Part shown: positions 5,038-63,308 of the stretch, one piece after another | Position numbering within the stretch: position 1 is the first letter of the stretch | Layout of the letters: each line of letters begins with the position of its first letter | Source of the DNA: Eledone cirrhosa | Taxonomy: Eukaryota | NCBI GenBank assembly: GCA_964016885.1 | Contig: OZ024753.1 | Location: 21,824,001 to 21,888,000 of the forward strand | DNA: 64,000 bases | Reading direction: 5' to 3' | Program-made: the position numbers and the translations under genes | The notes under the pieces: generated by a model | The model's input: the letters and a program-made list of their open reading frames with translations, nothing else | The model's database searches: none | What the model was told of the DNA's origin: nothing

Positions 5038-5041
<4 letters not shown>

Positions 5042-5114: not shown

Positions 5115-5122
<8 letters not shown>

Positions 5123-5154
5123 AGATCAAAAGATGGTTAAAGGAGTTCCATGTA

Positions 5155-5221
5155 TTTTATTATGCGCATTTCAAAAACAAACATCATCATGCAATAATAT
5201 TTGTGTTTTCATCAGATAAAA
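5155..5221 (-). ncRNA. type I hammerhead ribozyme, palindromic stem III TGCGCA
   Basis: TTTTAT-CTGATGA-stem II-GAAA-TGCGCA-TA-ATAAAA on the minus strand. Confidence 0.85.
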
Positions 5222-8215: not shown

Positions 8216-8426
8216 TAGTTCAGTGATATATACCACCAAGTAGTGCTGGGCAGAAGCAAGGTGGACAAACGTCTGTGCATTTAGAACTCAACTGGCCCTC
8301 GTCAGGACGATCTATCCCGGTCTTGCTTGCGGTATTTCTTTTTGCTCTCTGAGTTCAAATACCGCCAAGTTCAACTTTGCCTTTCATCTTTTCGAGGTCG
8401 ATAAAAAAGTACCAGTCGAGTCTGAA

Positions 8427-13011: not shown

Positions 13012-13329
<318 letters not shown>

Positions 13330-13620
13330 GTGGAACACTGGAAGGTGATATACGTAGTGGATATCCAGGCGACGAGTTAGGTAGAAGTGGTTACACAACA
13401 GTTTGTTCACCATACCGAGAACATACCTTCGCGGATCTTCAGCTCGGGATGTGTATGGTTATAGGAACAGAAAGGACAACCGTACGAACGCGCATGCGCA
13501 GAAACTCGCTCACTTCACACAGGCAATACTAGACTGCGTGCGGGAGATAACTGCGAAAGTCTGGAAAGTTTTTAGGTTGAAAATAAAATTAAAAGAAATT
13601 AAAAATTATATTACAAAGAA

Positions 13621-15320
13621 TCAGTCCGGAGCCTTGTAGTTATGCTATAGATGTTTGGTGACGTGTGGACAACGTGTGAAAAATTCACTTCTCGTGTTTA
13701 GGCAATCACTATTGCGTAATCTCTTTAGGATAGTTATTCGTTCGTCAATACATAAGCCACACGTCGGATTTCCCCTTGCGTATGGCTGGGACTTAGTGAT
13801 GGCTTTCCATTGAATGGAGTAGCCTATACTTGAGTCCTTGAGCGACCATGCGTGGCTCGCGAGTTTTGTGGATGAACGTCTGTCCAGGTATCTGAAGGTA
13901 GACTGGTGGTTCAGGAAACGCGCCTTGAATCGGCCCTCCGCCACGCCCACATAGGATTTGACCTCCTGTGGTTCATTTGGTCGGTTAGAAGTGACCACAG
14001 CTTCATAGATTACAGCTGGTGTGTGGCATTGCTGTTGAAGAGGGCAAGCTTTAGGCTTACGGCAAGAGCACCCTGGTGGGGTGTTGCTCCTAGTGCTGCT
14101 GGTGATGTGGGCCTTCATGTTCTTAGCGCAGGAGTATCCTAGTTTAACTTTGTGTCGGTTAAAGATGGAGCGATATTTATGACCTATGGGGAAGTGTCTA
14201 TCTAAGAGGGCTAGAAATGTTTTTCCTACATTGGTTTTAACGTTGAGTGAGAAGGGAGGAGAGAACCAGATAGTTTGTCTATTGATGCGCTTACTTTTCT
14301 TAATGGTGTTGTTGCTAGTGGGAGAGTAGGTGATAGGTTGTGAGAAGCCGCTGTTAACCAACGCCGTGTTATAGTAGGGTGCCGCCCTGTCAAAGATAGC
14401 CTGAGAGGAGAGGTTTGAGATTCTAGTACTGATATTCTTAACGAAGTTTCTAAAAACAGTGGGAGGGTGGCATGAGTCCTTGTGAATGTAATTAAGTTTC
14501 TCGTTTAGCTTATGGAAGGGTCTGTGGGTGTGTGTGCGAAGGTCTAAATTAATGTCTAAGAAATCTACGCTAGAGAGGTTGGTGGCTACTGTTATCCTAA
14601 GGCCTAACTCATTGAAGGTAGAAGCTAAGTCTTTTTTAAACCGGTCGAGGACGTGACCACTTTTATGGCTCGATAAAGTCAGTCCATCGTCACGGTATAT
14701 TCCCGTGTGGAAGTCCGTGAATCTAACACGTAATATGTCTAAGATAAAAAGGCCAACCAAGTCACATACGTCAGCACTGTCAAACTATCCCATGGAGACG
14801 TCGAACAGGTCTGAAGATGTAGACTTCTTTACCCAGGCTACTCCGTCGTTGAAGAGGAGAGTTTTCCGGCAGTGAGCGATGATTTCCCTGTCTAAACCAT
14901 CGACGGTGGTATAAGTGGTAGCGAAGTCCAACGCTCTGTTTAACAGGGTCTCTGAGATCGACGGGTAAAAATCGACAATGTCAAACTGTGTGAACTTCGC
15001 TTTTTTGGATTTTAAGGAGTTAAACCACTGAATTACGGAGTCGCTGTTCTCCCACTGGGGCAGGTTGGACTTGGTCCTCATGGTCTTAACTATGTTTCTA
15101 AGTATGGCCTTACTGACTAGTCCCATATCTGTGCGTGCCGGGTTTATTAGTCTACATGTGGGGTTAGAATTAAAGTCTACCTTGTGATCTTTCAGGGTGA
15201 GGAACGCCTCACGCTTAGCTAGAGATTGTAGCTTCTTATCTACCTTAAGGTCGGTGGGTTGGCGAGTTCCTTGGCTTCTTTATTAATGTCGTGGTAGGCC
15301 ATAGGGTTAGCTTTCTTATC
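13621..15320 (-). pseudogene. PLE RT plus GIY-YIG with TAG stops at 14785 and 13645, 5' truncated
   Basis: TLKDHK, QFDIVDFYPSI, FDVSMG, GIYRDDGL, SCHP, CSCR..CPL..C, VIYEA..YVG, CGLC, CPH. Confidence 0.9.
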
Positions 15321-16303
15321 TAATAAGGCTATCTTTGACAGGGCGACACTCTACTATAACACGGCGTTGGCTAACAGCAGCTTCCCACAACCTATCACCT
15401 ACTCTCCCACTAGCAACAACACCATTAAGAAAAGTAAGCGCATCAATAGACAAACTATCTGGTTCTCTCCTCCCTTCTCACTCAACGTTAAAACCAATGT
15501 AGGAAAAACATTTCTAGCCCTCTTAGATAGACACTTCCCCATAGGTCATAAATATCGCTCCATCTTTAACCGACACAAAGTTAAACTAGGATACTCCTGC
15601 GCTAAGAATATGAAGGCCCACATCACCAGCACCCCTAGGAGCAACACTAGGAGCAACACCAGGAGCAACACCCACCAGGGTGCTCTTGCCGTAAGCCTGA
15701 AGATTGCCCCCTTCAACAGCAATGCAACACATCAGCTGTAATCTATGAAGCTGTGGTCACTTCCAACCGACCAAACGAACCACAGGATGTCAAATCCTAT
15801 GTGGGCATGGCGGAGTGCCGATTCAAGGCGCGTTTCCTGAACCACCAGTCTACCTTTAGATACCCAGACAGACGTTCATCCACGAAACTCGCGAGTCACG
15901 TATGGTCCCTCAAGGACTCAAGTATAGGCTACTCCATTCAATGGAAAGCGATCACTAAGTCCAAGCTATACGCAAGGGGAAATCCGACGTGTGGCTTATG
16001 TATTGACGAACGAATAACTATCCTAAAGAGATTACGCAATAGTGATTGCCTAAACACGAGAAGTGAATTTTTCACACGTTGTCCACACGTCACCAAACAT
16101 CTATTGCATAACTACAAGGCTCCGGACTGATTCTTTGTAATATAATTTTTAATTTCTTTTAATTTTATTTTCAACCTAAAAACTTTCCGGACTTTCGCAG
16201 TTATCTCCCGCACGCAGTCTAGTATTGCCTGTGTGAAGTGAGCGAGTTTCTGCGCATGCGCGTTCGTACGGTTGTCCTTTCTGTTCCTATAACCATACAC
16301 ATC

Positions 16304-16343
16304 CCGAGCTGAAGATCCGCGAAGGTGAAACAATTGTTCTCGG
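16304..16343 (+). ncRNA. minimal type I hammerhead, stem III CAATTG
   Basis: CCGAG-CTGAAGA-TCCGCGAAGGT-GAAA-CAATTG-TT-CTCGG. Confidence 0.8.
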
Positions 16344-16371
16344 TATGGTGAAACTAACTGTTGTGTAACCA

Positions 16372-16419
<48 letters not shown>

Positions 16420-19078: not shown

Positions 19079-19431
19079 AACATTAGGATTTACCTTAGTA
19101 TAATCCCAATTATACGTTTGGGGTGCTAACTATACGTATTTTGCGGATAGCCAGTTGTATTATTTTATATGAGACATAATTAAAATACATCTCTCTTTCC
19201 AAACGATCGTTTCATTATAAGTTTTCTACAAATTGGGAAAATAATGTCCAGGTTGTGTAGAAGCCTACACATAGTCCGTAGGAATATATGTAGGTGGGCA
19301 CTTATAAATCATCAGTGGATGCCCGACAAATATCGATAAAGAAAACCTTACCGATATTAATGTTCAGCGATGGTACCCCTCCGTGCTATATATATTTGTT
19401 TTGCAAATGAAATCGTGTGTCGAAACAAATA

Positions 19432-19793
19432 TTGTTATACTTGGGGAGGGTCATATTGTGGTAATAATATTTCCAGAAATAATAACAGGACACTCACTGT
19501 TTCCTTGGTTTTCGCTTCTGTATCTTTTATATCTCCACAGTTAATTTATTTGGCAATCAATGTTTATCATTGACTGACCAACGGTTAAAAATACAGATAT
19601 AAATATATAGTCTATCAAAGTTCTTTCGTTGTACATCTACAACATCATAGTGGTGCTATTATTATCTTCCCTCCTATTGTAATGTATTGTAATGGCGTAG
19701 ACCAACCCAAATCAAAGAGTGAGTGTGTTTTATTATACATTTCTGGCAATATTATAACAATATGACCCTCCCAAATATAACAATATATATATA
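19432..19793 (-). mobile_element. inverted 3'-end fragment of the PLE family at 53040-55575
   Basis: 19432-19670 is the diverged reverse complement of 55100-55575 without the SINE; 19705-19793 re-inverts the tail. Confidence 0.7.
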
Positions 19794-19821
19794 TACATCA
19801 TACACACGTAAACATCCATAC

Positions 19822-19890
<69 letters not shown>

Positions 19891-23420: not shown

Positions 23421-23475
<55 letters not shown>

Positions 23476-23478
<3 letters not shown>

Positions 23479-24343
23479 TTAATTATACTATTTATGGTTA
23501 TGTAAATACAAAAACCTTTTGCAGTTATATATATTTTTATACAAACCCTAAATAGTGGTAGGCAGTAATATATTACTACCTTATTACCAGTAAGTTAAGT
23601 AGCTCAATGTAAAAACATCAGATGATTTACAGAGCAGTTATATGAAATATAAGAATCAAAGAACTGTTCAAAACATTTTTATGCTTACAACTGTTTCCTC
23701 CAAACCGAGGTTTGGAATTCTTCGGAGCAATTTATTAATGAATGAACACTTATATGACCTCCTTTTCACCCAAGAGACATACAGATACATATGCAAATAT
23801 TGTGGGTCAACATTCATTACACAATTAGAGATTACATTCATATTAAAAGATACAATCAAAAATACAGGTTAAAATACAACATGAAAATAAGCGGTTATTT
23901 TTAATGCTTATATTATTTCTCCACACACAGACTATAACAATCATATAAAGAATTTGCCACCAGATCAACCAACCTAACACTCTTGTTTACCTACTTAAGT
24001 GCTTCTACTACACGTAACTCTCTGCCACACTATATAAACAAGACGCACGTGCTTGCCACACATATAACATTTGCACTATATAACCGCTTATTTTCATGTA
24101 TTTTAACCTGTATCTTTGATTGTATCTGTTAATATGAATGTAATCTCTAAGTGTGTACTGCCACTCTAAATGCTGTAATGAATGTTGACCCACAATATTT
24201 GCATATGTATCTGTATGTCCCCTGGGTGAAAAGGAGGTCATATAAGTGTTCATTCAATAATAAATTGCTCCGAAGAACCCAAACCTCGGTTTGGAGGAAA
24301 CAGTTGTAAGCATAAAAATATTTTGAACAGTTCTTTGATTCTT

Positions 24344-24351
<8 letters not shown>
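23476..24351. mobile_element. short inverted 3'-end copy of the PLE family at 55626-62280
   Basis: left arm 23476-23897 (-) with ~165 nt tail; right arm 23898-24351 (+) without it; (TA)n on both sides. Confidence 0.9.
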
Positions 24352-24402
<51 letters not shown>

Positions 24403-26457: not shown

Positions 26458-26673
26458 ACATCGAGTTTCAACGTCACCGGTGCCAAGCTTATCAGCCATA
26501 ACCACAACATCGGTGGCGTGGAAGGGGAGACTGGTATACATGGGTGACTGTTGGTCTTCCACAAACCTTGACCGGACTTATGTTTAGGAGGGGAACTTTC
26601 TTGGTGCAAATCTCATTGTCATTCGTGATCGAAGAGGGTCTCCCCCTCCTCCCCCTCTCTCTCTCTCTATATA

Positions 26674-26965
26674 TATGGAAAACGAAGAATCAGTAATGCA
26701 TCGAAACACAATTTATTAACGTATTACAATTGTTTCTCCGGCGAACAGCTCAGGGTGCGATCTGTTTAGGATCGAACCTGACTCTGGATTCGCAAGTTAC
26801 TCAGATAGATCGCACCTCGAGCTCTTCGCCGGAGAAACAATTGTAATACGTTAATACATTGTGTTTCGATGCATCACTGATTCTTCGTTTTCCATACTAT
26901 ACTCTGCTCTGAAGGAGCTCAACCGGCATACCGCCTATGGGCGCATCCAAGCAACCTTACTACAA
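26674..26965. mobile_element. miniature inverted PLE-end element with the 3' half of a hammerhead
   Basis: arms about 26674-26765 / 26805-26896; tail 26897-26965 on the right only; GAAACAATTGTA in both arms; TA-flanked. Confidence 0.75.
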
Positions 26966-27402
26966 ATATATATATATATATGAGAAAATTGGAGCGCTGC
27001 GTGGTTGCGCGTATATATATATATATGACAGGTGACATTCAAGGTGGCCCTCTCTCTAGGATTTCGACTCAGAAGCCAAGGGACGGAAATAAACACTGCG
27101 GAGTATTTATGCCAATTCCTCATTTAGAGTAGTTTAGAGGGTCTCTAGAGAGAGGGGGAGGGAGAGTGCTAGAGAGAGATAAATAGGTGGAGGGAGAGAG
27201 AGAGGGGACGATGGAGAGAGAGAGAGAGAGGGGATGATGGAGAGAGAGAGAGAGAGAGAGAGAGTTAGATATTTTTACGAAAAGAAAGGTGCGTGACGGT
27301 TAATCTGGTTGTTTGATCTCAGAAAAAGATGGAAGACGGTAAAATATGTTTTAAAGCCACTGACGCTCTCGCGCACAGGAACACCGATGTATATATAATA
27401 AA

Positions 27403-27704: not shown

Positions 27705-27710
27705 TCGTAT

Positions 27711-28440
27711 ATATATAAATGAAAGGTATAGAAAGTATTGTAGCAAGAAGCACACAATATTCCATAATATATAAGTGACTATAGCGTCAAAATGGGAAAA
27801 TAGTTAACGTAAGATGTGGGAAAAATAATTCAAACTCAATTCAAAAAGAATCAGGATATAGATTTATCCAACAGAATTTAGTGAAATCCAGAGAAAAATC
27901 AATAGAGCCTTAACTCATGATAAAATAAAGTATAAAATACTCATCCTTCAATTTGGGACAACTACAAATGCTCTGTATAGTCTTGGAAAAGACTATTTCA
28001 CGTAAAATTTCAGTGGAGATGGTTACGGTTGGAATACGATCCTCAGCACTGCTCAACACGATAGCCAGATTCTCACTGATTAATATGCCAAAAAGGGAAT
28101 TTAAAAGCAGGCTAGTTTACCATCAAGCGTGATTATGAAAATGAAACGCACATGTGGAAAAACAGGGCTGGTGACGTCAGAATGAGTCGAATGTTTGTTT
28201 ATATGAAACAACAGTCAAAAACATTCCGAAAAAAAACTCTACAATAAGGAGTTCAGCAAAAAGCAATATTATCGCGGTTTTTAAGAAAAAACATATCGGG
28301 ATTAGTCACAAATAATTTAAGAACTCTAGGAAAGAAATGCAAGTATAAATATATAAATGAATGGTATAGAAAGTATTGTAGCAAGAAGCCAACAGTATTC
28401 CATAATATATAAGTGACTATAGCGTCAAAATGGGAAAATA
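27711..28440 (-). mobile_element. retrozyme-like family H copy 1, ~640 bp unit plus ~90 bp terminal redundancy
   Basis: 27711-27802 repeats at 28351-28440; HHR 27970-28052 (-) with CTGAGGA and imperfect stem I; homologous to 50843-51702. Confidence 0.75.
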
Positions 28441-41935: not shown

Positions 41936-42903
41936 ATAACTGAACAAAAAGGTAAAACGAACACAGACATATATATATGTGTTCAAATCGTAATGGAACA
42001 AAATCGCTAAGGTGAAAATAATACTAACTACAGACAATAGGGTTTGCTGGACTCAATTTAAGAACAAATTAAGAAAAATAAATACAAACCAGTATTGTGG
42101 TAACTACCATCACCCAGACGGTCTTTGATAGAACCGTTTCGCAATATTATTTGTGAAGAGGTATACCAAATTCCAGGCTCATCAGTGGGTGAAGAAATTA
42201 GTATCCTCCTCACTTCTAAATCAAATAGAAAACTGGAAAGTCTGTGTATATATAACGCACATGGTTCCCGAACTTAGTGTGTCGCGCATACTTACGCCAC
42301 TAAAAATAGCAGCCGGGTCTACACGACATTTGAAATAGCTCTACGAATTAACGGAGCCGAATATATCAAAACTATGTATTGAGTTAGAAACTCAAAATAG
42401 TCTCATTACAGTAATTTAATCGTGTAGACCCGGCTGCTATTTTTAGTGGCGTAAGTCTGCGCGACACGCTAAGTTCGGGAACCATGTACGTTATACATAT
42501 ATACACACTTTCCAGTTTTCTATTTGATTTAGAAGGAGGAGGATACTAATTTCTTCACCCACTGATGAGCCTGGAATTTGGTATACCTCTTCACAAATAA
42601 TATTGCGAAACGGTTCTATCAAAGACCGTCTGGGTGATGGTAGTTACCACAATACTGGTTTGTATTTATTTTTCTTAATTTATTCTTAAATTGAGTCCAG
42701 CAAACCCTATTGTCTGTAGTTAATATTTTTTTCACCTTAGCAATTTTGTTCCATTACGATTTGAACACATATATATATATATATATGTCTGTGTTCGTTT
42801 TACCTTTTTGTTCAGTTATATACGGCTCGGAAAAACCTTTTTCCTAGAGCTAATTTACTGTAATGAGACTATTTTGAGTTTCTAACTCAATACATGCTTT
42901 TGA
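41936..42903. mobile_element. non-coding inverted HHR element, ~520 nt unit
   Basis: arms 41936-42326 / 42420-42821; tail 42822-42903 on the right; tail end re-read at 42361-42415 (-); TA-flanked. Confidence 0.9.
42555..42637 (+). ncRNA. canonical type I hammerhead (mirror copy 42110-42192 minus)
   Basis: TCACCCA-CTGATGA-GC..GC-GAAA-CGGT..ACCG-TC-TGGGTGA; GUC cleavage after 42630. Confidence 0.9.
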
Positions 42904-42985
42904 TATATATATATATATATATATTTGTATCTCGAGATAAACAAAATCATGCATAATGCGCACGTACACATTAATACCCCCCCCC

Positions 42986-46270: not shown

Positions 46271-46648
46271 TCACATTATTTTCAAATGATCATTTCCAGC
46301 CGTTGATTTCTATTTCCTATATGCAAATGAGAATCTCCAGTAAATGTTCATAACACAAATTCTATGTAGGATATAGTCTATTTCCATATTATTACCGGTT
46401 GAGTGAAGGTCACTGATGTGAGATTAAGGAATACCAAAACATCTGTCTGACATTCTCGATTGCTACTGAGTGACATGTTCACTGACAAAAAGCGAGAAAA
46501 AATATTTTTTCGTAAATATATTTTTTTCTTTTATAGCGGAGCTCCCAAATAATTATTGTATGATAACATATAGTATATGCTTTCATATACACCTATTACG
46601 TCAAACGCTGCCATAGGGCTACTGCCAATATATATATATATATATATA

Positions 46649-47900
<1,252 letters not shown>

Positions 47901-48402
47901 ATGTTTATAGTTGATTAAGAGCACTCAACAGTTCCTGGAGCAAATAATCAATAAAAGTAAGCATTAAAAAAACTCCATATGTAATTATGCATATACATAC
48001 AAAACCATACACACACATATGTAGTTGGTTGTGTGTGTATATATATATACACACAACAAACTACATATGTGTGTGCGGACACTAGGAACCCATATAAAAA
48101 TAATAATTCAGTGGATGGAATATATTTATCTCCAAATTATTTGTTGAGCGAAACTTGCCAAAATTTACTGCTATGGTTCATGGTAGTAGTTAGGCTCTTG
48201 TCATAATACCACCCCACTCCTCACTGATTAACCTCAGTGTCACGTGATTGATTCTTTAGAATTTGCCACTGACCAAGTAGGCAGTGAATTTTTTCAGTGC
48301 CCTGGAATTTAATCCCCGCTAGCTTTGTTCCATCCACTGAATTATTATTTTTATATGGGTTCCTAGTGTCCGCGCATTGCCTGGGAACTTAGCTGAGAAT
48401 AG

Positions 48403-48484
48403 ACTTCCTGATGACGTAAGGACTTCTCTATAGTTACATTACGTAACTATATTTATTCCCTTACAGAAACTAATTAGTTGGAGT
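48403..48484 (+). ncRNA. type I hammerhead, stem III CTAATTAG (unit 1)
   Basis: ACTTC-CTGATGA-..GTAAGG..CCTTAC-A-GAAA-CTAATTAG-TT-GGAGT. Confidence 0.85.
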
Positions 48485-48940
48485 GAAAATTTTAGTAAGT
48501 AAGTTAATTTTTAATTTTTAAAATTTTCTTATTTTACGTCTTTCATATAATTGTTCTGCATTCCCCTGCATAGAACCACAAAGGTACTAAGACATAACAT
48601 ATATTTCCTAGCATGGGTATACATCTGTATACATATGTTGGTAGATATACGAATTCTCTATATTTATCTCCAAATTATTTGTTGAGCGAAACTTGCCAAA
48701 ATTTACTGCTATGGTTCATGGTAGTAGTTAGGCTCTTGTCATAATATCACCCCACCCCTCACTGATTAACCTCAGTGTCACGTGATTGATTCTTTAGAAT
48801 TTGCCACTGACCAAGTAGGCAGTGAATTTTTTCAGTGCCCTGGAATTTAGTCCCCGCTAGTTTTGTTCCATCCACTGAATTATTATTTTTATATGGGTTC
48901 CTAGTGTCCGCGCATTGCCTGGGAACTTAGCTGAGAATAG

Positions 48941-49021
48941 ACTCCCTGATGAAGTAAGGACTTCTCTATAGTTACATTACGTAACTATATTTATCCCTTA
49001 CAGAAACTAATTAGTTGGAGT
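48941..49021 (+). ncRNA. type I hammerhead, stem III CTAATTAG (unit 2)
   Basis: ACTCC-CTGATGA..GAAA-CTAATTAG-TT-GGAGT. Confidence 0.87.
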
Positions 49022-49190
49022 GAAAATTTTAGTAAGTAAGTTAATTTTTAATTTTTAAAATTTTCTTATTTTACGTCTTTCATATAATTGTTCTGCATCC
49101 CCCTGTATAGAACCACAAAGGTACTACGACATAACATATATATTTGCTAGCATGGGTACACATCTGTATACATATGTTGGTAGATATACT

Positions 49191-49870
<680 letters not shown>

Positions 49871-49948
49871 GTGGTCTTTCAACCCTAGTAATTTTAGACA
49901 CACGATTTACGTGTATGTATGTTGTCGTGTATATGTGTATATAAGTGT

Positions 49949-49979
<31 letters not shown>

Positions 49980-50165
49980 TATGTGTATGTATACATTTTT
50001 ATATGTATGTGTATGTGTATGTATGTGTATATATATATATATGTGAGTGTGTTTATATATATGTGTGTGTGTATTTTTATTTATGTGGTGTTGTAACCCT
50101 TTGTACTTATGTGTGTGTGTATATTAGTGTGTGTTGTGTATATTAGTGTGTGTGTATATATATAG

Positions 50166-50730
50166 GAAGCACTTTGGATCAAACGCCTAGGGCCACAGTT
50201 AAACAACGGATCCGAGAGAAGCTAAATGAGGTGGTTGGTTTAAATAAACAAACGATGCAGCAACACACGCACACACACACACAAGTGAGACAGCAACACA
50301 CGCACACACACACACACAGTAGCATTCCACCATACGAACATACTACACTGCCAATACAAAAGAACAAGGCAACAACACACGCACACACACACACACTCAA
50401 GCGAGACAACAACACACGCACACACACAGACACAGTAATATTCACCAAACAGGCAGAGAATACTATGGACTGACAGCTAGCGCCACCCCACTCCCACAAT
50501 TGAAAGAACTATTTCGGCCGCCGACCTCTGCTTGACCAACCCCATTTCACGCGCACGCGCGCTCTGCTGAATACCTCAGATATTCAAAACAACGAACAGC
50601 GGAGGACACGTTTCGCACCTTTCCGACAGACAACCCCCCCCCCCCCCGGAAAAAAACTCAGTTGATGGATGTGAATCCGAAATATATAGAGACAATTAAA
50701 TCTCTCCCAAGGTAACTCTATCTCGTGTTA
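50166..50730 (+). mobile_element. 3' fragment of a PLE related to element E
   Basis: EALWIKRLGPQLNNGSERS*MRWLV* versus E EALVIKNLRPPLNNRAERNELTWLT*; shared 3' structured motif. Confidence 0.7.
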
Positions 50731-50842
50731 TTATTTTTATTTTTATACCTTTATTTTTTATTTGTCGTATGCTCTACTATTTGAATACCCCTTCTTTCTC
50801 TTTATTTTTATTTTGTGCATGTATTTTGTGCATGTATTTTGT

Positions 50843-51702
50843 ATTAATGTGAGCAAGAAGCCAACAGTAATTCATACATATATATAAGTGACTATTACGT
50901 CAAGATGGAAAATATTTAAAATATTTAACGTAAGATATGGGAAAATAATTCAATCTCAATTCAAAAAAAGTCAAGACAGAAATTTTATCCAAAGATTTTG
51001 TGTAATCCAGGGAAAGAACCAATAGAGTCTTAACTCAGAATAAAATTAAGGGTAAATACTTATCCTTCAATTTGGAAAAATGTACAAAAGCTCTATATAG
51101 TCTTTAAAAGACTATTTCACGAAACTTTTCAGTGGGGTTAGTCACGATTGGGTCGTTCATCAGTAGAGCTCAACACGATAACTAAGAACCACAGCTAAAA
51201 TATGCCAAAAGGGAATTTAAAAGCAGACTAGTTACACCTCGTGTGGAATTAAGATAATAAACACACATGGAGAACAGGGCTAGTGACGTCAGAATGAGAC
51301 GAATCACTGTTTACAAGAAACATCAGTCAAAACATTCCAAAAAAAAAACTCGACAAAAAATATGGAGTTCAGCATAAAGCAATATTATCGCGGTTTTTTA
51401 AAAAAAAAACCGGGATTAGTGACAAATAATTTTAAGCATTCTAGGAAAAATTCCGAGTATAAATATAAATGAAAATAGAGAAATTAATGTGAGCAAGAAG
51501 CCAACAGTAATTCATACATATAAGTGACTATTACGTCAAGATGGAAAATATTGAACGTAAGATATGGGAAAATAATTCAATCTCAATAAAAAAAAGTCAA
51601 GACAGAAATTTTATCCACAGATTTTGTGTAACCCAGGGAAAAATCCAATAGAGTCTTAACTCAGAATAAAATTAAGGGTAAATACTTATCCTTCAATTTG
51701 GA
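50843..51702 (-). mobile_element. retrozyme-like family H copy 2, ~640 bp unit plus ~220 bp redundancy
   Basis: 50843-51075 repeats at 51483-51702. Confidence 0.82.
51090..51169 (-). ncRNA. canonical type I hammerhead
   Basis: GCTCTA-CTGATGA-ACGA..TCGT-GAAA-TAGTCT..AGACTA-TA-TAGAGC. Confidence 0.9.
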
Positions 51703-51710
51703 ATATATAA

Positions 51711-51796
<86 letters not shown>

Positions 51797-51801
<5 letters not shown>

Positions 51802-52082
51802 GGTTAAACAAGGTTCAATGAATAAATCAAAGAATGAGTTTTACAATAGATTGGAAGCACTCCACAAGATTGGTTTTCCGGTGTTATTAATATTAATTCA
51901 AAATAATAACAAAAATAGACATTCGTGTGATCAAGTATATTTTATTATACATATTTCAGAGGTACTAAGTTATTTACAACAGTACGTCTTCATCAGATAA
52001 AATAAGATGATGTATGCATGGCATACCCTGACTTAGTAGATGGTTAAGATTCAGTCATGGCATGACTGAATCTTAACCATCT
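51797..52082 (-). mobile_element. family L HHR end fragment terminating in a snap-back hairpin
   Basis: HHR 51938-52004: TATTTTAT-CTGATGA..GAAA-TATGTA-TA-ATAAAATA; palindrome 52038-52082; tail matches 63224-63308. Confidence 0.75.
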
Positions 52083-52094
52083 TATATCCACATT

Positions 52095-52290
52095 GGTGGA
52101 TTGGCAGTATCGGTAGAGGGTCGGACACCATGCTTTGCATCAAAGAGTTACGGCCCTTTATGGTTTGAGTTCAAATCCCGCCGAGGTTAACTTTTCCTTT
52201 CATCCTTACGGGGTCGATAAAATAAAATGACTGTAATACACTGAAATAATTGCTGGCCTTGTGTCAAAAGTAGAAACAATTATTATTATT
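52095..52290 (+). mobile_element. major SINE
   Basis: family consensus match. Confidence 0.88.
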
Positions 52291-52537
52291 ATTATTTTTA
52301 TTTTTATTTTAAATTTTGCCGTCTTGTATCGCTGTGAACTTAATAATATTTTTTATTTTTTTATTTTTTTCTTAATCCTTATTTTTTATTTGCTTATTTG
52401 TATGTGACGGCCTATTATGATTATTTATTCTTATTTGTGTGTGTGCATATGTATCCTTTTATATGTGAGTACGTATGCATGTGTGTATATATTTGTGTAT
52501 GTATGTGTGTGTGTATGTATGTATGCGTATGTATATA

Positions 52538-52596
<59 letters not shown>

Positions 52597-52874
52597 TGGT
52601 GTATTTATGTATGGATATATATATATATATGTATGTGTGTGTATATGTGTCTCTGTGTATATATATGTGTATATATGCGTGTATATATGTATATATATAT
52701 ATGTATATATGTGTGTATATGTGAGTGTGTGTGCGTGTGTGCGTGTGTGTACGTGTATGTTGTTATATATTCTTATTTATTATCCCCCTCCCCCTTTTTT
52801 TTCTTCCAACCTCATTTTCATATCTGTTATATTTTTGTTGTTCAAATCCACTGTCAATAAAGACACCAGGACTT

Positions 52875-52934
52875 TTTCATTCTGATGAATGAAAGCAATT
52901 TTGGTTGCTTTCAAGAAACCACTGGTAAATGAAA
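52875..52934 (+). ncRNA. type I hammerhead of family I
   Basis: TTTCATT-CTGATGA-A-TGAAAGCAA..TTGCTTTCA-A-GAAA-CCACTGG-TA-AATGAAA. Confidence 0.88.
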
Positions 52935-53040
52935 TAATTATTTTATGTTGTTTATTACATAACTAATAAGATCTGTAACCTACATAAAGCACTCTTTTTT
53001 CCTGGACTGCTCTGACGGAATCACCTCATTCACACACACA

Positions 53041-55571
53041 ATGGCCAACCGCCCTTGTAGGAGCTCCGCAAAGACCACAAGACAGTCGACGACCCGACAA
53101 CAGGACCACCAACAAGACCTGTATGCGGAGCAAATATAGCTAGCAACTACAGGATCTCATACTTCCTCTCAATGGTTATACGCCCCATAATCAAGGTGTC
53201 CCCAGATGTATGTGACAGTACAGAGGAAATCCTCAGCAGAATCAGTGAGTGCAACAAAAACAGGAACCTATCCAACTGCATAATAGGCAGTATGGATGTG
53301 GTATCACTGTACCCATCCATTAACATTGATTTTGCTGTGGAAAAATGTGTGGAGATGATCATTGAGAGTGAGGTGGAGTTCTGCGACGTCGACACAGACG
53401 AACTGGGCCTCCTACTTACACTTACCTACGACACTGACTACCTAGACAGCCATGACCTTAGACGTTTCTGCCCCAGTAGACCCATAAGAGGTAGACCCCC
53501 CCCCCCCCACACCATAACCTAAATGGCTAAAAAGACTCCCATGGGAAGGTGGATTGGGTGGACCAAAGCTATACGGACCCCCCAAAACAATGATCAGGTA
53601 ATAAAAATGGTCGCAATAGGGGCTATTATCAAAACTACCCTAAAGGGCCACATATTCAAGTTCAACGAGAAGATCTACACCCAAAATGAGGGAGCAGCCA
53701 TTGGCGTCAGCATAGCTGGTGACGTTGCCAACCTTTTTATGGTATGGTGGGAAAGGAGACTCAAAGATCTCCAGAAGAGAGCACTAACAAGTTTGATTTA
53801 GAACGTAGCACAATGGAAAGCATCCAGCAGATAGCTAACTCCATACACCAGAGTATAACTGTAACTATCGACTATCCTTCCACACACCCTAACAATAGAC
53901 TACCTGTATTAGACACGGAACTCTGGATTAACACTATAGGCGAGAGAGCCCAAATTCTCCACTCACACTATGCTAAACCCATGGCCTCCAAATACCTGAT
54001 ACTCAAAAACTCAGCAATGTCCAGTAGTGCTAAGTTTAATATTCTGATCGCAGATTTGGTACGAGTGATGAAGAATGTGTCCAGCATGTGCGACCCAACA
54101 GAAATGGAAAGACACATCCAACACTTCATCAACCGTATGCAGTTCTCTGGCTACAACCAAAGAGACAGAGTCAGAGTATACGAAGGAGCCACGGTGAAGT
54201 ATAAGACCCTCATAGAACTGGACATGAAAGGAATTTGTCCATTATACAGGAGCAAATCATGGAATAGCTTAGATAGGACTAGACATAAGATAGGGAAGGC
54301 CACATCATGGTACGACAACCAGAGATACCAGAGCGTCATGTTTGTGGACGCTACCCCTGGAGGGAAATTAGCTAACCAGTGTAGAAAGGCCCTGAGAAAG
54401 ACCCACTTAAAGGTTAAGGTGGTAGAAAAGCTAGGAACCACCATAAAATCCCTGATCAGCAAAACCTACCCTTTTAAGAAAACCCACTGTACCAATAGGA
54501 AATGTATCATATGTAAGGTGAACCCCCGGATAAACTGTAAAACTAGAAACGTAGTCTATAGCATAAGATGTACAGAGGGTACTTGCAGAAACATGACAAC
54601 AACATACATAGGCGAGACAGGTCGTAGCATAGGTGAAAGGATAGACCAACACTGGGGGGAACTAAAAGGACGAAAAAACGGATCAGTACTATACGAACAT
54701 ACCAGACAACAACACAACGGTAACATAGACAACATAGTTCGAATAATATCTAAACATAGAAATGACCCAGCAGATAGGCAAATCAGAGAGGGCAGTTAAA
54801 TAGAACTTAGAAGGCCAAGGCTAAACAGAAATAATGAATGGAATAACAACACCCAAACAAACAACACTGACGTAACAGAAGTATAAATAAATAAATAAAT
54901 AAATAAATACATACACAAGCACAATAACAACAAATACATATACACTAGTAAACTAATATTGAATACATTAACCAATACACAGTTACTCAAACAAGAACAC
55001 ACATCAAACAAAACACTATACACACGAAAGCGCATGAGCAGAGAAGACAAAAAATAAACAAATAAATAAACAGACTAAATAAAGATGGCGTAGGCATACA
55101 ATGCAACGGGAGGAAACATAATAGCACCACTGACGATGTTGCAGATGTGCAACGAAAGAACTTTGATAGACTATATATATATGTGTTTGTGTCTATATTG
55201 TATCTGTAATTTTTTTGTTTCTACTTTAGGCAGAAGGCCAGCAATTACCCAGTGCATTACTGGTTCTTTATTTTATCGACCCCGTAAGGATGAAACGCAA
55301 AGTCAACCTCGGCGTGATTTGAACTCAAATCGTAAAGGGACGTAACTATGCTGGAAAGCATGGCGTCCAACCCTCTACCGATACTGCCAATCCACCGCCC
55401 TTATATTGTGTCTGTAATTTTGACCGTTGGTCAGTCAATGGTAACTTTGAGGACCGAATAAATTAAATTAACCGATATAAAAGACACAGAAGCGAAAACC
55501 AACCAAACAGTGAGTGTGTTCTGTTATTAATTCTGGCAATATTATTACAGAAATATGACCCTCCCCAAGTA

Positions 55572-55575
<4 letters not shown>
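53041..55575 (+). mobile_element. degenerate Penelope-like element of a fourth lineage, 5' truncated
   Basis: RKDHK..GPPTRPVCGA, IGSMDVVSLYPSI, QNEGAAIG, VVYSIRC..YIGETGRS; the catalytic DD region appears deleted near 53765; HHR-like motif 55121-55174; ends in (TA)n. Confidence 0.82.
55216..55400 (-). mobile_element. major SINE inserted in the PLE tail with ~19 bp TSD
   Basis: TATATTGTRTCTGTAATTT at 55194-55212 and 55402-55420. Confidence 0.9.
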
Positions 55576-55628
<53 letters not shown>

Positions 55629-58325
55629 TTAATTATACTATTTATGGTTATGCAAATACAAAAAACCTTTTGCAGTTATATATATTTTTATAAACCCTAA
55701 ATAGTGGTAGGCAGTAATATATTACTACTACTTTATTACCAGTAAGTTAAATAGCTCAATGTAAAAACATCAGATGATTTACAGAGCAGTTATATGAATT
55801 ATAATATTCAAAGAACTGTTCAAAACATGTTTATGCTTACAACTGTTTCCTCCAAACCGAGGTTTGGGTTCTTCGGAGCAATTTATTATTGAATGAACAC
55901 TTATATGACCTCCTTTTCACCCAGGGGACATACAGATACATATGCAAATATTGTGGGTCAACATTCATTATAACATTTAGAGTGGCAGTACACACTTAGA
56001 GATTACATTCATATTAAAAGATACAATCAAAAATACAGGTTAAAATACAACATGAAATTAAGCGGTTATATAGTGCAAACGTTATATGTGTGGCAAGCAC
56101 GTGCGTCTTGTTTATATAGTGTGGCAGAGAGTTACGTGTAGTAGAAGCACTTAAGCAGGTAATCGAGAGTGTTAAGGTTGTTGATCTGGTGATGAATTCT
56201 TTATATGATTGTTATAGTCCGTGTGTGGAGAAATAATATAAGTATTAAAAATAGTGTAAGCATTAAAAATATTGGAAATGCGTAGCGAAGCGATGATATG
56301 GGTTTCATGCACTGCGACATTTTCATAGTCTGGGGAGCGTATTTTTCAGATTATACGCCCCTCACATAATCCACAACGATTCGATATTGGGCGTTTGACA
56401 ATCCAGTTAGAGAATCGTATTCTGATGTTCTTTGCCTCAATACAGGAGGATGTTACGTTGCGAGAATCGACATCGAAATACTACCCGGAAGTGTGTGTGT
56501 GGCTAAGGGGAGTTAATGCATGAGGGGAGGTAACTCATTGGTTTCTATTACTAACTATTAAATTGTGTCTCAAAATAGACCCTAACTTATATGGTTATGC
56601 GCCAATTCTAAAAAATTTCTAAAAATTTAAAGTGTTTTATCTATAGAGTAGTCTATTAAGTTGTGCTGAAGGTGTTCTTATTATGGTGATTAACCCCCAA
56701 CGTAGAGTGCCACAAATGAATATTATACACGACGAGCGAGAATTCTAAATTAATGATCTCTGTGGTTGCAGTCTACTCAAGGAACCAAGCAAGGTGATTG
56801 CAGAATCACTTCAACACACAATGATCTCTTGTAAGTTCTGGGTCATTGCTTGCTACATTGGATGTCGAAAGATAATCATCACCAGGGCCGACCAGAGGTC
56901 AATCCACAGTCCTCATGACTCCAAACTGACCATCAAATCATACACATATGTACAACCCATACGCCACTTGCAATACATTCATTCACTGCACCCAGCGTAC
57001 CGGTCATACAGCTCATCAGCGTTACTAGATTAATTAGTTTTTCATTTGTCCAACGATGGCACTTCCTCCGCACAGCACCAACAATACAGTCAATTCAATG
57101 CTTAAATTAACTATAAAGTGGTGTAGTGCAGTTCAAGCAAGTGGATGTTGTCACACCTAAAGTAGAAGTACAAAGGGGTATTCCCCCTGTGAAGGGTTCT
57201 AGAGGGATGTCGCGATTTGTGTTATATTAGATCAATGAGTGTTGGGTATGTGGTATAAGGTGTGCCCCTGGTGTTTGATGCTAGAGGTGGTGTTTGGTTC
57301 AAGTCCGACATTGCTATATATTGGGCTTAAAGTTTTGGAAGGAATGTCTGAAGCGGTGCTGGCAAGTTGCAAACACTTCAGATTTTTTGTTAAGTAGGTT
57401 ACGGTTAGAGAAGATAATATTGTGGGTCTCTAGTATACAGAGGTTACAAAATTTATTAGGTGGTTTGTACGAAGTTGCGCTACCTATTACTTCCCATTTG
57501 AGTGTGTAAGGTTTATTTTTAGTTTTTAGATAGTGTATGTAACTAGATAGTGAGGTGGAGTTGGCTAGACTGTGCTTTTTGAACGAGTGGATGTGCGAAT
57601 TATATCTGATTTTGAAGCAGTTAGAAGTGGAGCCTACATAGGTTTCTGAAGAGTTGCTAGTTGTGACGCTGCATGAGTATATGATATCCTTGGTTAGGCA
57701 TTTTTTATCTAAAGGGCAGGTTCTATTAGCTCTACAGTTACAATTATCCTGTGTGTTAGTCTGCTGGTTATAATGCAGTGCAGAAGTCCGGGTGGTAGCT
57801 ATAGGATTTTGGACATTCGGGTTGTCGACCCCGGTGTTATTTCTTATACTAGTGGTATTTCTATTATTACTGCCGTTACTATGGTTGTTTGCTACAGAGG
57901 TATTTAGAAGGTTTACCTCCTGTTGTGATTTCGTTTGTTGGAAGTAAGAATTTATTTTACTTTTATTGCTGCTAGCTATGTGGTATGCTAAGTTAGGCGT
58001 CGTAGAGTATGAGATTTTAATAGTGTTTTTGTTTAAAAGGTTATGGTACTTGTGTCCTAGAGGGAAGTTCTTATCTAGTTAATAGTATTAATTATACTAT
58101 TTATGGTTATGCAAATACAAAAACCTTTTGCAGTTATATATATTTTTATAAACCCTAAATAGTGGTAGGCAGTAATATATTACTACCTTATTACCAGTAA
58201 GTTAAATAGCTCAATGTAAAAACATCAGATGATTTACGGTTTTTGTATTTGCATAACCATAAATAGTATAATTAATACTATTAACTGCTCCATACTGTTG
58301 AGCTGACATACAATAAATTACCAAT

Positions 58326-60763
58326 ATGCTAATCAAAGACCAACTCCCCATGTCAACCAAGAACATACCAATACCATCCAAGAATACATATGAGAAATTG
58401 CTGATCAACAGTGTAAATTAATTTATCAATAGAGTGAGAGGGAGGACATTCCATTATGATAGAAACAGATCTAACAATGTTAATAATACTAACAAATTTG
58501 ACTCCTTCGGCTTTAAAACCTTTAAAAGCCCCCCTCATAACACACTACTTAACTCCTTTGAAAATGACCTAGTAAAACTAGTTAAGAACATTAAATACAA
58601 TAAGCACCATAATAGAAGCAACACCTTCTTAAACAAACTTAACACCGCTATTAATGAATTCAAAACTAGTAATAAAATTATTGTACACGCAGATAAAACT
58701 AATAACATATACAGCCTAGATTATAATACTTATAGAAAGTTTATATATAATGAACTACATAAAAGCTACAAGAAAACTACTTTGAAAAACTTAGAGGATA
58801 TTAATATAGAGGGATATAATATAGTGTCTAAACTAGGACTTCAGAGGCATACACAATCATACACCCCCCCCCTAGATTCTCTCTGAAGGATCATAAGGAG
58901 GACTTCATTAGCAACCCCTCGATTATACTTATCTGCCCTTCCAAGTCCGACATTGGTATTATCAGCAAGAAAATTTTAGATAAAATCATCCCACAAATTA
59001 AACACAACATACACCTTAAACAATGGGGAAATACGGGTGAAGTTATTGAATGGTTCAAAGATATCAAGAATAATAAGGACAGAAAATTAATTCAATTTGA
59101 TATCAATTCATACTACACCTCTATTTCCCCTATCCTATTAAATAAGACACTAATCATGGCCATGAACAATAGCGACCTGACTAGAGCCCAGATTGATGTC
59201 ATCCTTGCGGCCCGTAAAACCATAATCACCTTCGAGGACCAACTATGGACCCGCAAGGATACGCACAACAACTTCGACATAACCATGGGATCTAGTGACT
59301 CGGCGCAGGTCACTGATTTGGTCGGCCTATACCTACTTAATGAAATCCATAAGGACCTCCCTTACCTCAACGGTGGTTTGTACCGCGATGATGCACTTCT
59401 ACTTATAGAATATAATAAATTCAATATAGAAAGAACTAGAAAACTATTGCACAAGACATTCAAAGACTTTAACCTTAGTATCACCATGGACAAAAACACT
59501 AAAAATGTTAACTTCCTAGACGCCACACTATACCTAGACTCAAAAATATATATACCTTTCCATAAGCCCAACGAAAAACTCATTTACGTGGATACCAAGT
59601 CTAATCACCCTCGATCAATATTAAACTCTATCTCTAAGGGGGTATCCAATAGAATCTCTAATCTATCCTATGACGCAAACATATTTAGCAAAAACTCACA
59701 ATATTATAATCAAACATTAGCTAGATCCGGCCATAATATAGAGATTGAGTTCCTACCTAAGAAAACGCATAGCTACAACATCATTTCCCACAATATGTCC
59801 ATGAGGAAACCTAATAATATGAATAGCAACCACACGTACACTAAAGCGGAGGGTGCCACCAGAAGTAACCATTACCACGGAAACTACCGTAGTACCTTAG
59901 GAAGAAACAACACACCAGACACTAAAAACAAAAATAGAAGAAATAATACATTTTTCAACCCTCCTTTCAACCTAAATGTCTCCACCAACATACCTAGGGC
60001 TTTCTTCTCATTACTAGATAAAAACTTCCCTCTAGGGCACAAGTACCATAACCTTTTAAACAAAAACACTATTAAAATCTCATACTCTACGACGCCTAAC
60101 TTAGCATACCACATAGCTAGCAGCAATAAAAGTAAAATAAATTCTTACTTCCAACAAACGAAATCACAACAGGAGGTAAACCTTCTAAATACCTCTGTAG
60201 CAAACAACCATAGTAACGGCAGTAATAATAGAAATACCACTAGTATAAGAAATAACACCGGAGTCGACAACCCGAATGTCCAAAATCCTATAGCTACCAC
60301 CCGGACTTCTGCACTGCATTATAACCAGCAGACTAACACACAGGATAGTTGTAACTGTAGAGATAATAGAACTTGCCCTTTAGATAAAAAATGCCTAACC
60401 AAGGATATCATATACTCATGCACCGTCACAACTAGCAACTCTTCAGAAACCTATGTAGGCTTCAAAATCAGATATAATTCGCACATCCACTCGTTCAAAA
60501 AGCACAGTCTAGCCAACTCCACCTCACTATCTAGCTACATACACTATCTAAAAACTAAAAATAAACCTTACACACTCAAATGGGAAGTAATAGGTAGCGC
60601 GACTTCGTACAAACCACCTAATAAATTTTGTAACCTCTGTATACTAGAGACCCACAATATTATCTTCTCTAACCGTAACCTACTTAACAAAACATCTGAA
60701 GTGTTTGCAACTTGCCAGCACCGCTTCAGACATTCCTTCCAAAACTTTAAGCCCAATATATAG
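58326..60763 (+). pseudogene. PLE RT plus GIY-YIG, full span, with TAA at 58419, poly-C frameshift near 58865 and 15 bp EN deletion
   Basis: MSTKNIPIPS, ADKT, LKDHK, QFDINSYYTSI, FDITMG, GGLYRDD, SNHP, CNCR..CPL..C, IIYSC..YVG, CNLC, CQH. Confidence 0.9.
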
Positions 60764-62192
60764 CAATGTCGGACTTGAACCAAACACCACCTCTAGCATC
60801 AAACATAAGGGGCACACCTTATACCACATACCCAACACTCATTGATCTAATATAACACAAATCGCGACATCCCTCTAGAACCCTTCACAGGGGGAATACC
60901 CCTTTGTACCTCTACTTTAGGTGTGACAACATCCACTTGCTTGAACTGCACTACACCACTTTATAGTTAATTTAAGCATTGAATTGATTGTCTTGTTGGT
61001 GCTGTGCGGAGGAAGTGCCATCGTTGGACAAATGAAAAACTAATTAATCTAGTAACGCTGATGAGCTGTATGACCGGTACGCTGGGTGCAGTGAATGAAT
61101 GTATTGCAAGTGGCGTATGGGTTGTACATATGTGTATGATTTGATGGTCAGTTTGGAGTCATGAGGACTGTGGATTGACCTCTGGTCGGCCCTGGTGATG
61201 ATTATCTTTCGACATCCAATGTGGCAGGCACTGACCCGGAACTTACCAGGGATCATTGTGTGTTGAAGTGATTCTGCAATCACCTTGCTTGGTTCCTTGA
61301 GTAGACTGCAACCACAGAGATCATTAATTTAGAATTCTCGCTCGTCGTGTATAATATTCATTTGTGGCACTCTACGACGGGGGTTAATCACCATAATAAG
61401 AACACCTTCAGCACAACTTAATAGACTACTCTATAGTTTAAATTTTTAGAAATTTTTTAGAATTGGCGCATAACCATATAAGTTAGGGTCTATTTTGAGA
61501 CACAATTTAATAGTTAGTAATAGAAACCAATGAGTTACCTCCCCTCATGCATTAACCCCCCTTAGCCACACACACACTTCCGGGTAGTATTTCGATGTCG
61601 ATTCTCGCAACGTAACATCCTCCTGTATTGAGCCAAAGAACATCAGAATACGATTCTCTAACTGGATTGTCAAACGCCCAATATCGAATCGTCGTGGATT
61701 ATGTGGGGGGGGGGGCGTATAATCTGAAAAATACGCTCCCCAGACTATGAAAATGTCGCAGTGCATGAAACCCATATCATCGCTTCGCTACGCATTTCCA
61801 ATATTTTTAATGCTTACACTATTTTTAATACTTATATTATTTCTCCACACACAGACTATAACAATCATATAAAGAATTCATCACCAGATCAACAACCTTA
61901 ACACTCTCGATTACCTGCTTAAGTGCTTCTACTACACGTAACCCTCTGCCACACTATATAAACAAGACGCACGTGCTTGCCACACATATAACGTTTGCAC
62001 TATATAACCGCTTAATTTCATGTTGTATTTTAACCTGTATTTTTGATTGTATCTTTTAATATGAATGTAATCTCTAAGTGTGTACTGCCACTCTAAATGT
62101 TATAATGAATGTTGACCCACAATATTTGCATATGTATCTGTATGTCCCCTGGGTGAAAAGGAGGTCATATAAGTGTTCATTCAATAATAAAT

Positions 62193-62239
62193 TGCTCCGA
62201 AGAATCCAAACCTCGGTTTGGAGGAAACAGTTGTAAGCA
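62193..62239 (+). ncRNA. hammerhead-like motif with CCGAAGA core (copies 55834-55880 -, 23682-23729 -, 24266-24312 +)
   Basis: TGCT-CCGAAGA-ATCCAAAC-CTCG-GTTTGGAG-GAAA-CAGTTG-TA-AGCA. Confidence 0.7.
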
Positions 62240-62274
62240 TAAAAATGTTTTGAACAGTTCTTTGATTATTATAA

Positions 62275-63308
<1,034 letters not shown>

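Follow-up and report, generated by a model that had tools for sequence, protein, structure and literature searches.

Within a 64,000-nt stretch of the Eledone cirrhosa genome (assembly GCA_964016885.1, contig OZ024753.1, forward-strand positions 21,824,001–21,888,000), which we refer to as the window and number from its first letter, positions 55576–62312 hold a decayed insertion of a Penelope-like element (PLE) of the Hydra clade. The best overall explanation of this focal insertion, to which we assign a probability of about 0.6, is that hairpins directed its reverse transcription to start at two sites. The element has two alternative 3′ ends lying 168 nt apart, denoted site A (the tail-less end) and site B (the tailed end) throughout; each arm of the insertion uses one of them, and a bulged hairpin lies within ∼10 nt on the 3′ side of each. 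The paired hairpin at reverse transcriptase (RT) start sites appears to be what is new here, whereas crossing of the junction, an inverted truncated arm, a tail on one side, an RNA that is tandem or circular, and non-coding partners moved by PLEs are already published. The insertion and its open reading frame (ORF), untranslated regions (UTRs) and pseudo-long terminal repeat (pseudo-LTR) are laid out as follows:

55576..55625, no strand: (TA)n target, left flank; its final 3 nt are common to the tail end
55623..55790, − strand: tail of 168 nt, the outer end of the tailed arm, spanning site A (55791) to site B (55623)
55754..55787, − strand: hairpin A, with a 4-bp outer stem, a 2-nt bulge and a 6-bp inner stem, 3 nt 3′ of site A
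55791..58079, − strand: body of the inverted 5′-truncated arm, the reverse complement of 60013–62282
55834..55880, − strand: copy of the hammerhead in the minus arm, U4C core, with one stem II mismatch and failing the descriptor
57314..58078, − strand: 3′ part of the ORF with undeleted endonuclease, whose model resembles the GIY-YIG enzyme I-TevI
58077..58081, − strand: extra switch point, 5 nt beyond site B, with 3 nt of microhomology to 60013–60015 and 1729 nt skipped
58082..58237, − strand: second tail copy (tail positions 9–168), terminating within the 5′ strand of hairpin A
58238..58281, + strand: minimal pseudo-LTR of the + arm, the last 44 nt of the tail, beginning at the blunt inversion junction 58237/58238
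58282..58325, + strand: 5′ UTR, 44 nt
58287..58303, + strand: hairpin B, 5 nt 3′ of site B and 39 nt before the ATG
58326..60763, + strand: ORF encoding an RT plus a GIY-YIG endonuclease at the C terminus, Hydra clade, broken
60764..62282, + strand: 3′ UTR, 1519 nt, with its tail-less end at site A
62193..62239, + strand: minimal type I hammerhead with a Hydra-type layout and a U4C core, cleavage predicted after 62235, 47 nt short of site A
62278..62312, no strand: (AT)n target, right flank

Self-comparison of the window aligned the body of the minus arm with 60013–62282 at 97.3% identity over 2294 nt (32 substitutions and three indels); the similarity of the tail copies (E 1e-70) and of the tail end (E 3e-15) is far above chance, and the unit measures 4169 nt. 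It bore out the element anatomy of the original prediction to within 1 nt and moved the inversion boundary, which had been placed nearly right, 1 nt leftward to 58237/58238, a junction without microhomology. Overlooked in that prediction were the hammerhead, both hairpins and the reach of the second tail copy 5 nt past the tail end into 5′ UTR sequence. The same family has another, shorter insertion in the window:

23473..24355, no strand: tailed minus arm (23473–23898) and tail-less plus arm (23896–24355) with a 3-nt overlap, (TA)n on both flanks

This insertion uses A and B ends identical to those of the focal element, and (TA)n abuts four of four ends of the two insertions. Three informative sites group their arms by insertion and one across insertions. 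Six of the 32 differences between the focal arms fall within 28 nt (61223–61250 on the + strand vs. 56854–56827 on the − strand), a degree of clustering seen in eight of 20,000 random placements; the minus arm there always has A, opposite G (four sites, each before G) or C (two sites). The A/G cluster could be adenosine-to-inosine editing of the template RNA, which would leave the two A/C changes unexplained.

The hairpins share one plan, running GCTC, stem, loop, stem, 2-nt bulge and GAGC, with a 4-bp outer stem, the bulge on the 3′ side and an inner stem of 1–7 bp. In the focal element the same 9-mer stands after A and after B; outside the focal family its 8-nt core is absent from the window. 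GCTC, the 5′ strand of the hairpin, occurs within 16 nt of site A in six of nine window families (any 4-mer was so frequent in 37 of 20,000 random draws). A strict descriptor finds the hairpin at site A in five of the nine families and at site B in two of three; site A of 49327–49751 was assigned by eye.

In a blind test, the descriptor, fixed beforehand on the window, was applied to 25 perfect-core hammerheads in 13 new loci (L001–L013), with three mismatched-core matches omitted from the counts. These loci are contigs filed under bacterial genomes and carrying Hydra-type retrotransposons, most likely animal DNA inside bacterial bins. Eleven of the hammerheads reach a microsatellite 32–57 nt past the cut, without a hairpin. 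Among the 14 where the sequence continues, nine carry the strict hairpin, eight of these at 41–62 nt (background 0.014 per 110 nt; binomial 2e-12), three have a variant hairpin, and two, from one family with no adjacent Hydra ORF, have none. All five families with a 5′ end have a second hairpin 38–55 nt before the ATG. Across 20 aligned hairpins, 99.2% of cells pair and four of six pairs change on both sides (0/500 shuffles); inner pairs 3 and 4, which lie outside the requirements of the descriptor, are paired 25 times compared with 9.9 in shuffles (0/20,000). The hairpin was also recognized by eye in Hydra-2_Amil, Hydra-1_Ajap (two), Hydra-2_Ajap and Hydra-1_Crog, with four of six consensus ends in File S7 of PMC8557442 carrying it.

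Several results weigh against the hairpins as signals for RT starts. The strict hairpin A is missing from four of the nine window families, including 13327–16374, which has a Hydra ORF, and the non-coding 62310–63135; the loose descriptor has 32 matches in the window compared with 14.8 in shuffles, so that about half are chance; two of the blind-test matches belong to one family; the aligned hairpins were selected for pairing; and non-Hydra controls having both ends are few (two sites). A covariance model at E ≤ 5 gave no match in 62310–63135, 26670–26966, 46647–52965 or 13327–16374, and hairpin B is weak by energy alone (−3.5 kcal/mol in a 40-nt window). Taking both sides together, we regard conservation of the hairpin as nearly certain; that it positions the RT is somewhat more likely than not.

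The hairpins could instead have been kept for another job (promoter, DNA-level endonuclease recognition, RNA stability or translation), with TA-rich sequence alone setting the starts. The location of hairpin B 38–55 nt before the ATG would suit such a job, one Hydra family with normal ends has no hairpin A, and the tail region of Penelope has regulatory activity (PMC2377424) and is needed for endonuclease recognition of DNA (cited in PMC11167929). However, no ATG lies downstream of hairpin A, each of the two hairpins lies equally near an insertion end, other TA-rich parts of the unit (within the tail, for example) went unused in the four focal arms, and the pairing covaries as expected of RNA or single-stranded DNA; we consider this alternative unlikely. 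The literature searched, which did not extend to subscription papers and Repbase reports, yielded no description of paired hairpins, and neither "hairpin" nor "stem-loop" was found in the text portions of PMC8557442 or its supplement, one figure page of which has no text. A clade-wide paired hairpin is thus apparently undescribed in print.

The two ends are used in a regular manner. In all 11 inverted pairs examined in the window, one arm ends at site A and the other continues; the far end is clear in nine, and tails measure 59–168 nt in the Hydra-type and ORF-less families and ∼35–40 nt in the single family linked with a non-Hydra element. This one-tail rule is followed by six of eight resolvable inverted pairs in the other loci and is broken by two, L005 926/4771 (both arms tail-less) and L010 (both apparently tailed), which count against it. 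The pair counts omit 1–242 (cut by the window start), the pair 35262/38874, which bears a short interspersed element (SINE), two direct-repeat elements and the unresolved L002 and L006 pairs.

Under hairpin-directed priming, the RT would bind a hairpin and use as primer a nicked (TA)n strand that has annealed to TA-rich RNA immediately 5′ of that hairpin. Priming at A would fall to one strand of the target and priming at B to the other, perhaps with one RT subunit per strand, yielding two head-to-head complementary DNAs (cDNAs) that would be joined and filled in. In the focal insertion the A-primed cDNA would have copied the whole unit plus 44 nt of upstream tail, and its template would therefore have crossed the junction between tail and 5′ UTR. 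The B-primed cDNA may have broken off at 60013, re-primed at hairpin B's foot by means of three matching bases and then stalled within hairpin A, leaving the second tail copy; a bound partner could act as the roadblock, and re-priming at hairpin B could build pseudo-LTRs. As the model has a B start depend on a downstream hairpin B, the 2.4-kb tailed arm would need either an RNA running from ORF through tail into the next 5′ UTR, or strand transfer. RNA continuing into a next unit could be an uncut tandem or a ligated circle. We see hairpin-directed two-site priming, leaving the circle aside, as about an even bet.

The second tail copy joins the ORF interior through a 3-nt microhomology (58077–58079 = 58284–58286 = 60013–60015), skipping 1729 nt; it begins precisely where hairpin B has its foot and runs on into the 5′ strand of hairpin A. 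Because of this exact extent we favor re-initiation at B over random deletion, with slightly better than even confidence. The original prediction had described an extra template switch here; the second tail copy is real, with its start at hairpin B's foot, and the switch has a rival in a deletion, whether later or inherited. In that alternative, the second tail would be the remnant of a complete second arm, either from a near-perfect 4.3-kb palindrome or with the gap already in the source copy, and the 1729 nt would have been lost by microhomology-mediated deletion, no RT switch being involved. Long palindromes tend to lose central sequence, and the join has its microhomology. Only 2 nt past site B are independent of that microhomology, which speaks against re-initiation, as does a 15-nt endonuclease deletion in the + arm that has 3 nt of microhomology as well; ordinary decay therefore makes such joins here. 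Such deletions are known in PLE copies (PMC3846280). Against deletion stand the breakpoint, whose position 5 nt beyond site B coincides exactly with the 5′ foot of hairpin B (a naive chance of 6/4169 positions, computed post hoc), and stand-alone B-to-A pieces elsewhere (window ∼63226–63308; L009 6310–6361); we think deletion the less likely account by some distance. The window piece is a solo tail (+ strand) that begins with hairpin A between two (TA)n runs and is related to the tailed hammerhead-bearing end at 51797–51996 (51797–51890, − strand). An intron was also considered for the skipped 1729 nt, and none of the four registers gives GT/GC...AG.

Two further alternatives concern the form of the template RNA. 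One possibility is a linear, terminally redundant RNA with strong-stop transfer, in which the transcript would start near hairpin A and the RT would start at the 5′ site B, run off and jump to the 3′ tail copy. By analogy with retroviral first-strand transfer, the stops in hairpin A would then mark the RNA 5′ end, and a long tandem or circle would be unnecessary. B-started pieces end within hairpin A in four cases (the focal element, L009, L010 and L011), no focal arm is longer than one unit, and Penelope transcripts start in the pseudo-LTR (PMC2377424). In the tiny inverted pair L009 6252–6361, however, the tailed arm stops inside hairpin A and the tail-less arm starts at the hammerhead cut, ∼50 nt 5′ of hairpin A, a pattern consistent with a roadblock on ribozyme-cut RNA (one case); cut RNA can thus serve as template. 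The pseudo-LTRs of L001 and L007 also extend upstream of the hammerhead, and strong-stop transfer seems to us a doubtful explanation overall.

Alternatively, the template might be a circular monomer formed by two hammerhead cuts and ligation, with two RTs at hairpins A and B of one circle. A cut linear monomer would give cDNAs of merely 47 and 215 nt from A and B, so that long arms require RNA that is uncut or has been ligated; in L001 a pair of hammerheads is separated by 2487 nt, one cDNA terminates at the cut site, and the junction-crossing arms of two non-coding units (62310–63135 and 41937–42904) stop near the 3′ foot of hairpin A. Retrozyme circles, moreover, are documented (PMC7229834). 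Yet genomic partial tandems from which suitable linear RNA could come do exist, namely L001 and L007, the latter running from an ORF end through a hammerhead and both hairpins to the next ORF. The focal U4C core is reported to cut much less well in vitro (PMC3088659), and for an anole element cleavage is dispensable and no reads end at the cut (PMC11167929). We hold the circle to be rather improbable. The focal DNA fits a circle, an uncut tandem or strand transfer alike, and the tail/5′ UTR junction, being present in the DNA and in any linear partial-tandem transcript, is no discriminator between circle and tandem. The fullest version, in which the two bulged hairpins are a clade-wide RNA signal docking the RT at two start sites on one hammerhead-processed circular template, is improbable in our judgment.

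The focal hammerhead-like motif was recognized with a descriptor that none of 1000 shuffles of the last 200 nt passes. Its U4C core is shared by all four hammerhead copies of the family, only two of the four pass the descriptor, and the motif is not the minimum-energy fold, which counts against the main explanation; energy folding alone fails to recover the three-way structure. A strict hammerhead core scan is blind to the focal ribozyme owing to U4C, and Rfam returned no hammerhead or other meaningful family in the window and none in eight other loci at gathering score. A second hammerhead-like core lies in the long 3′ UTR (61058–61096 on the + strand, 57019 on the − strand), with a 7-bp stem II, GAAT for GAAA and unclear stems I and III.

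We consider it as good as certain that the focal element is a Hydra-clade PLE, because its DKT (as ADKT), YRDD, CxCx5C, CxxC and CxH around the catalytic E and N, together with the absence of CCHH, match the definition of that clade (PMC8557442). The protein has 232 relatives at E ≤ 0.001 (identity 30%–47% among the matches listed), two named ones coming from an argonaut. DK[TS] is found in 84 of 84 long relatives, and the N-terminal RWK position, which reads RGR in the decayed focal copy, is RW[KR] in 65 of 84. Endonuclease residues C3, C5, C11, C101, C104, E107, N120, C129 and H131 are invariant across 57 rows, and no cysteine pair lies between the GIY- and YIG-equivalent strands. The endonuclease model (predicted local distance difference test 93.5) aligns with I-TevI over 89 residues (Z 9.4, root-mean-square deviation 2.4), and the best four of 48,161 chains are I-TevI, T4 EndoII, a UvrC GIY-YIG domain and PD-T4-3 (Z 9.4 to 5.7). 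Foldseek gave nothing at E ≤ 0.001, its best match being T4 EndoII. The Pfam GIY-YIG match is weak (E 0.036), a Pfam search with the main ORF was without any match, and a profile search of PDB sequences gave a single weak match, a retron RT (E 0.015). BLASTP of the focal protein against the YLDD and YVDD elements of the window found nothing better than E 0.65. A quick tree of 35 rows groups the focal RT with YRDD sequences, apart from the window YLDD/YVDD PLEs (Shimodaira–Hasegawa-like approximate likelihood ratio test 100); it has no named references and its outgroup branches are long, which tempers the placement. The identification as a PLE in the original prediction is supported by the motifs and the GIY-YIG fold, and the clade is Hydra, which its reference list had omitted. 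Naiad and Chlamys, which would show an N-terminal endonuclease, DKA, CxC and no canonical hammerhead, are ruled out by the C-terminal endonuclease and DKT; Neptune, Nematis and Penelope/Poseidon, for which a CCHH endonuclease and DKG are expected, are ruled out by DKT and the missing cysteine pair.

The same prediction had called the ORF full and the element autonomous-type, which is true of its length only. The ORF has an in-frame TAA (58419–58421), a frameshift in a C9 run (58864–58872) and the 15-nt endonuclease deletion after 60458, the last absent from the minus arm, and this copy is incapable of encoding a working protein. Asn-rich in-frame inserts (∼59780–59950 and 60130–60350, + strand) lie between thumb and endonuclease, at a position shared with a few close relatives; comparable inserts are reported for A. 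vaga Penelope.

The original prediction further held that the focal element has the same plan as non-coding elements and that YRDD-type PLEs are their likely mobilizers. The tail-less arms of 62310–63135 and 41937–42904 do cross the junction, and this plan is the published PLE layout (PMC8557442). The non-YRDD element at the window start, which carries YLDD and DKG, crosses its junction too, so the architecture is by itself no pointer to YRDD types. In that element the 3′ end, which abuts (TA)n, recurs at the 5′ end (243–296 = 4996–5048), and the junction is not followed by a hairpin. When 16 element ends and seven tails were compared by BLAST, the focal family showed no homology to the non-coding ones. 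What supports YRDD-type mobilizers is the shared hairpin, best seen in one unit:

41937..42904, no strand: non-coding closed unit of ∼505 nt with a hammerhead, hairpin A (42825–42850, + strand) and hairpin B (42357–42338, − strand); longest ATG-initiated ORF 33 amino acids

Because it has the hammerhead and both hairpins, there is real support for its mobilization by a Hydra-type protein, though not by the dead focal copy. Hairpin A is also found in two further ORF-less pairs, while the closed unit 62310–63135 has no hairpin match. ORF-less units that keep the hairpins would then be moved in trans by a Hydra-type protein. That PLEs move non-coding hammerhead units has already been proposed (PMC7229834, PMC5680766, bioRxiv 10.64898/2026.07.22.740005).

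The window holds further elements of these kinds. The non-Hydra PLE at 1–5041 (YLDD, DKG) has an upstream frame of 422 amino acids and an RT-endonuclease frame of 750. Additional Hydra-type coding families with canonical hammerheads are 5122–8287 (− strand)/49327–49751, which has internal tandem repeats in a long 3′ UTR, and 13327–16374, a Hydra-type family without a recognizable hairpin A. A decayed non-Hydra PLE (53000–55580, + strand) has a hammerhead core at 55130 and a SINE inserted at 55215–55398; 19429–19840 is a short inverted copy of it with a 35–40-nt tail lacking the hairpin. An abundant 190-nt SINE-like repeat occurs at about 20 places over 10535–55398 on both strands. Two non-coding direct-repeat units (27707–28440 and 50843–51703, − strand) have either a hammerhead or the core of one, together with a weak match to the hairpin (E 0.06–0.07), and 48121–49209 is a non-coding 538-nt tandem dimer with a weak hairpin match at its start.

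For two decades it has been an open question how PLEs come by their tails, inverted arms and pseudo-LTRs, and one in vitro study showed the two starts, not their determinant. A covarying hairpin behind both start sites in many Hydra-clade families offers a direct, mutable handle on the choice of PLE start site. It also marks true element ends for annotation, where published consensus sequences put the tail at either end, and offers a route for assigning non-coding hammerhead elements to a mobilizing clade. If true, hairpin-directed two-site priming would bring tails, inverted arms and partial tandems under a single rule, and the hairpins would serve as the minimal cis element through which the protein is borrowed by non-coding hammerhead units.

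Viewed by itself, the focal element is an ordinary dead member of the Hydra clade with a published layout: a partial tandem, a truncated copy lying next to it in inverted orientation, and a tail at a single end (PMC8557442 Fig. 2 legend, PMC3846280, PMC2377424). The Hydra clade (Craig et al. 2021, PMC8557442) includes Hydra-1_Obim, Hydra-1/2_Ajap, Hydra-1/2_Amil and Hydra-1_Crog, and the focal protein is colinear, judged by eye, with Hydra-1_Obim (PMC8557442 supplement). Also shared with the clade, as described in PMC8557442, are the single ORF, C-terminal GIY-YIG, DKT, CxCx5C linker, CxxC, CxH, lack of CCHH, (TA)n targets, hammerhead-like motif near the 3′ end and inverted 5′-truncated copy, the last noted there for Penelope-13_HM. 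Different are the focal unit length (4.2 kb compared with generally less than ∼3 kb in PMC8557442, where short length is a tendency of the clade and no diagnostic trait; the difference comes from the 1.5-kb 3′ UTR and Asn-rich inserts), RGR for RWK, the U4C hammerhead and the broken ORF.

In the current biochemical picture, two internal RT start sites bound the PLE tail, AT-rich DNA is nicked and extended on both strands, RNA 3′ of the start is needed, and tandem RNA is the standard template model (PMC11167929); circular PLE RNA was proposed in 2014 (PMC4209133). Poseidon of Anolis carolinensis (PAc; Frangieh et al. 2024, PMC11167929), from another clade, resembles the focal element in having two internal RT starts that define the tail and an AT-rich target; in PAc, cutting and extension take place on both DNA strands, RNA 3′ of the start is required and a dimer is predicted. 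Its tail is 30–40 nt and lies inside the ORF, whereas tails here are 59–168 nt and non-coding. PAc starts inside a stem loop that is AC-rich and has no target homology, whereas here the ends share 1–5 nt with (TA)n and the hairpin is 3′ of the start.

D. virilis Penelope and A. vaga Pen2 (PMC2377424, PMC3846280) likewise have the 3′ end of an upstream copy as pseudo-LTR, an adjacent inverted arm, a one-sided tail, microhomology joins and deletions, and Asn-rich ORF inserts; the focal element differs from them in its direct pseudo-LTR of just 44 nt and its 2.6-kb inverted arm with a second tail. The non-coding units of the window resemble non-LTR retrozymes and non-autonomous PLE derivatives (PMC7229834; bioRxiv 10.64898/2026.07.22.740005; non-autonomous Chlamys in PMC8557442) in being short hammerhead units without coding sequence for which mobilization by PLEs has been proposed, with circular RNA shown for some (PMC7229834). 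Unlike retrozymes, they are inverted single insertions and not arrays of at least two units, and their link to the clade comes through the shared hairpin and not through pseudo-LTR homology.

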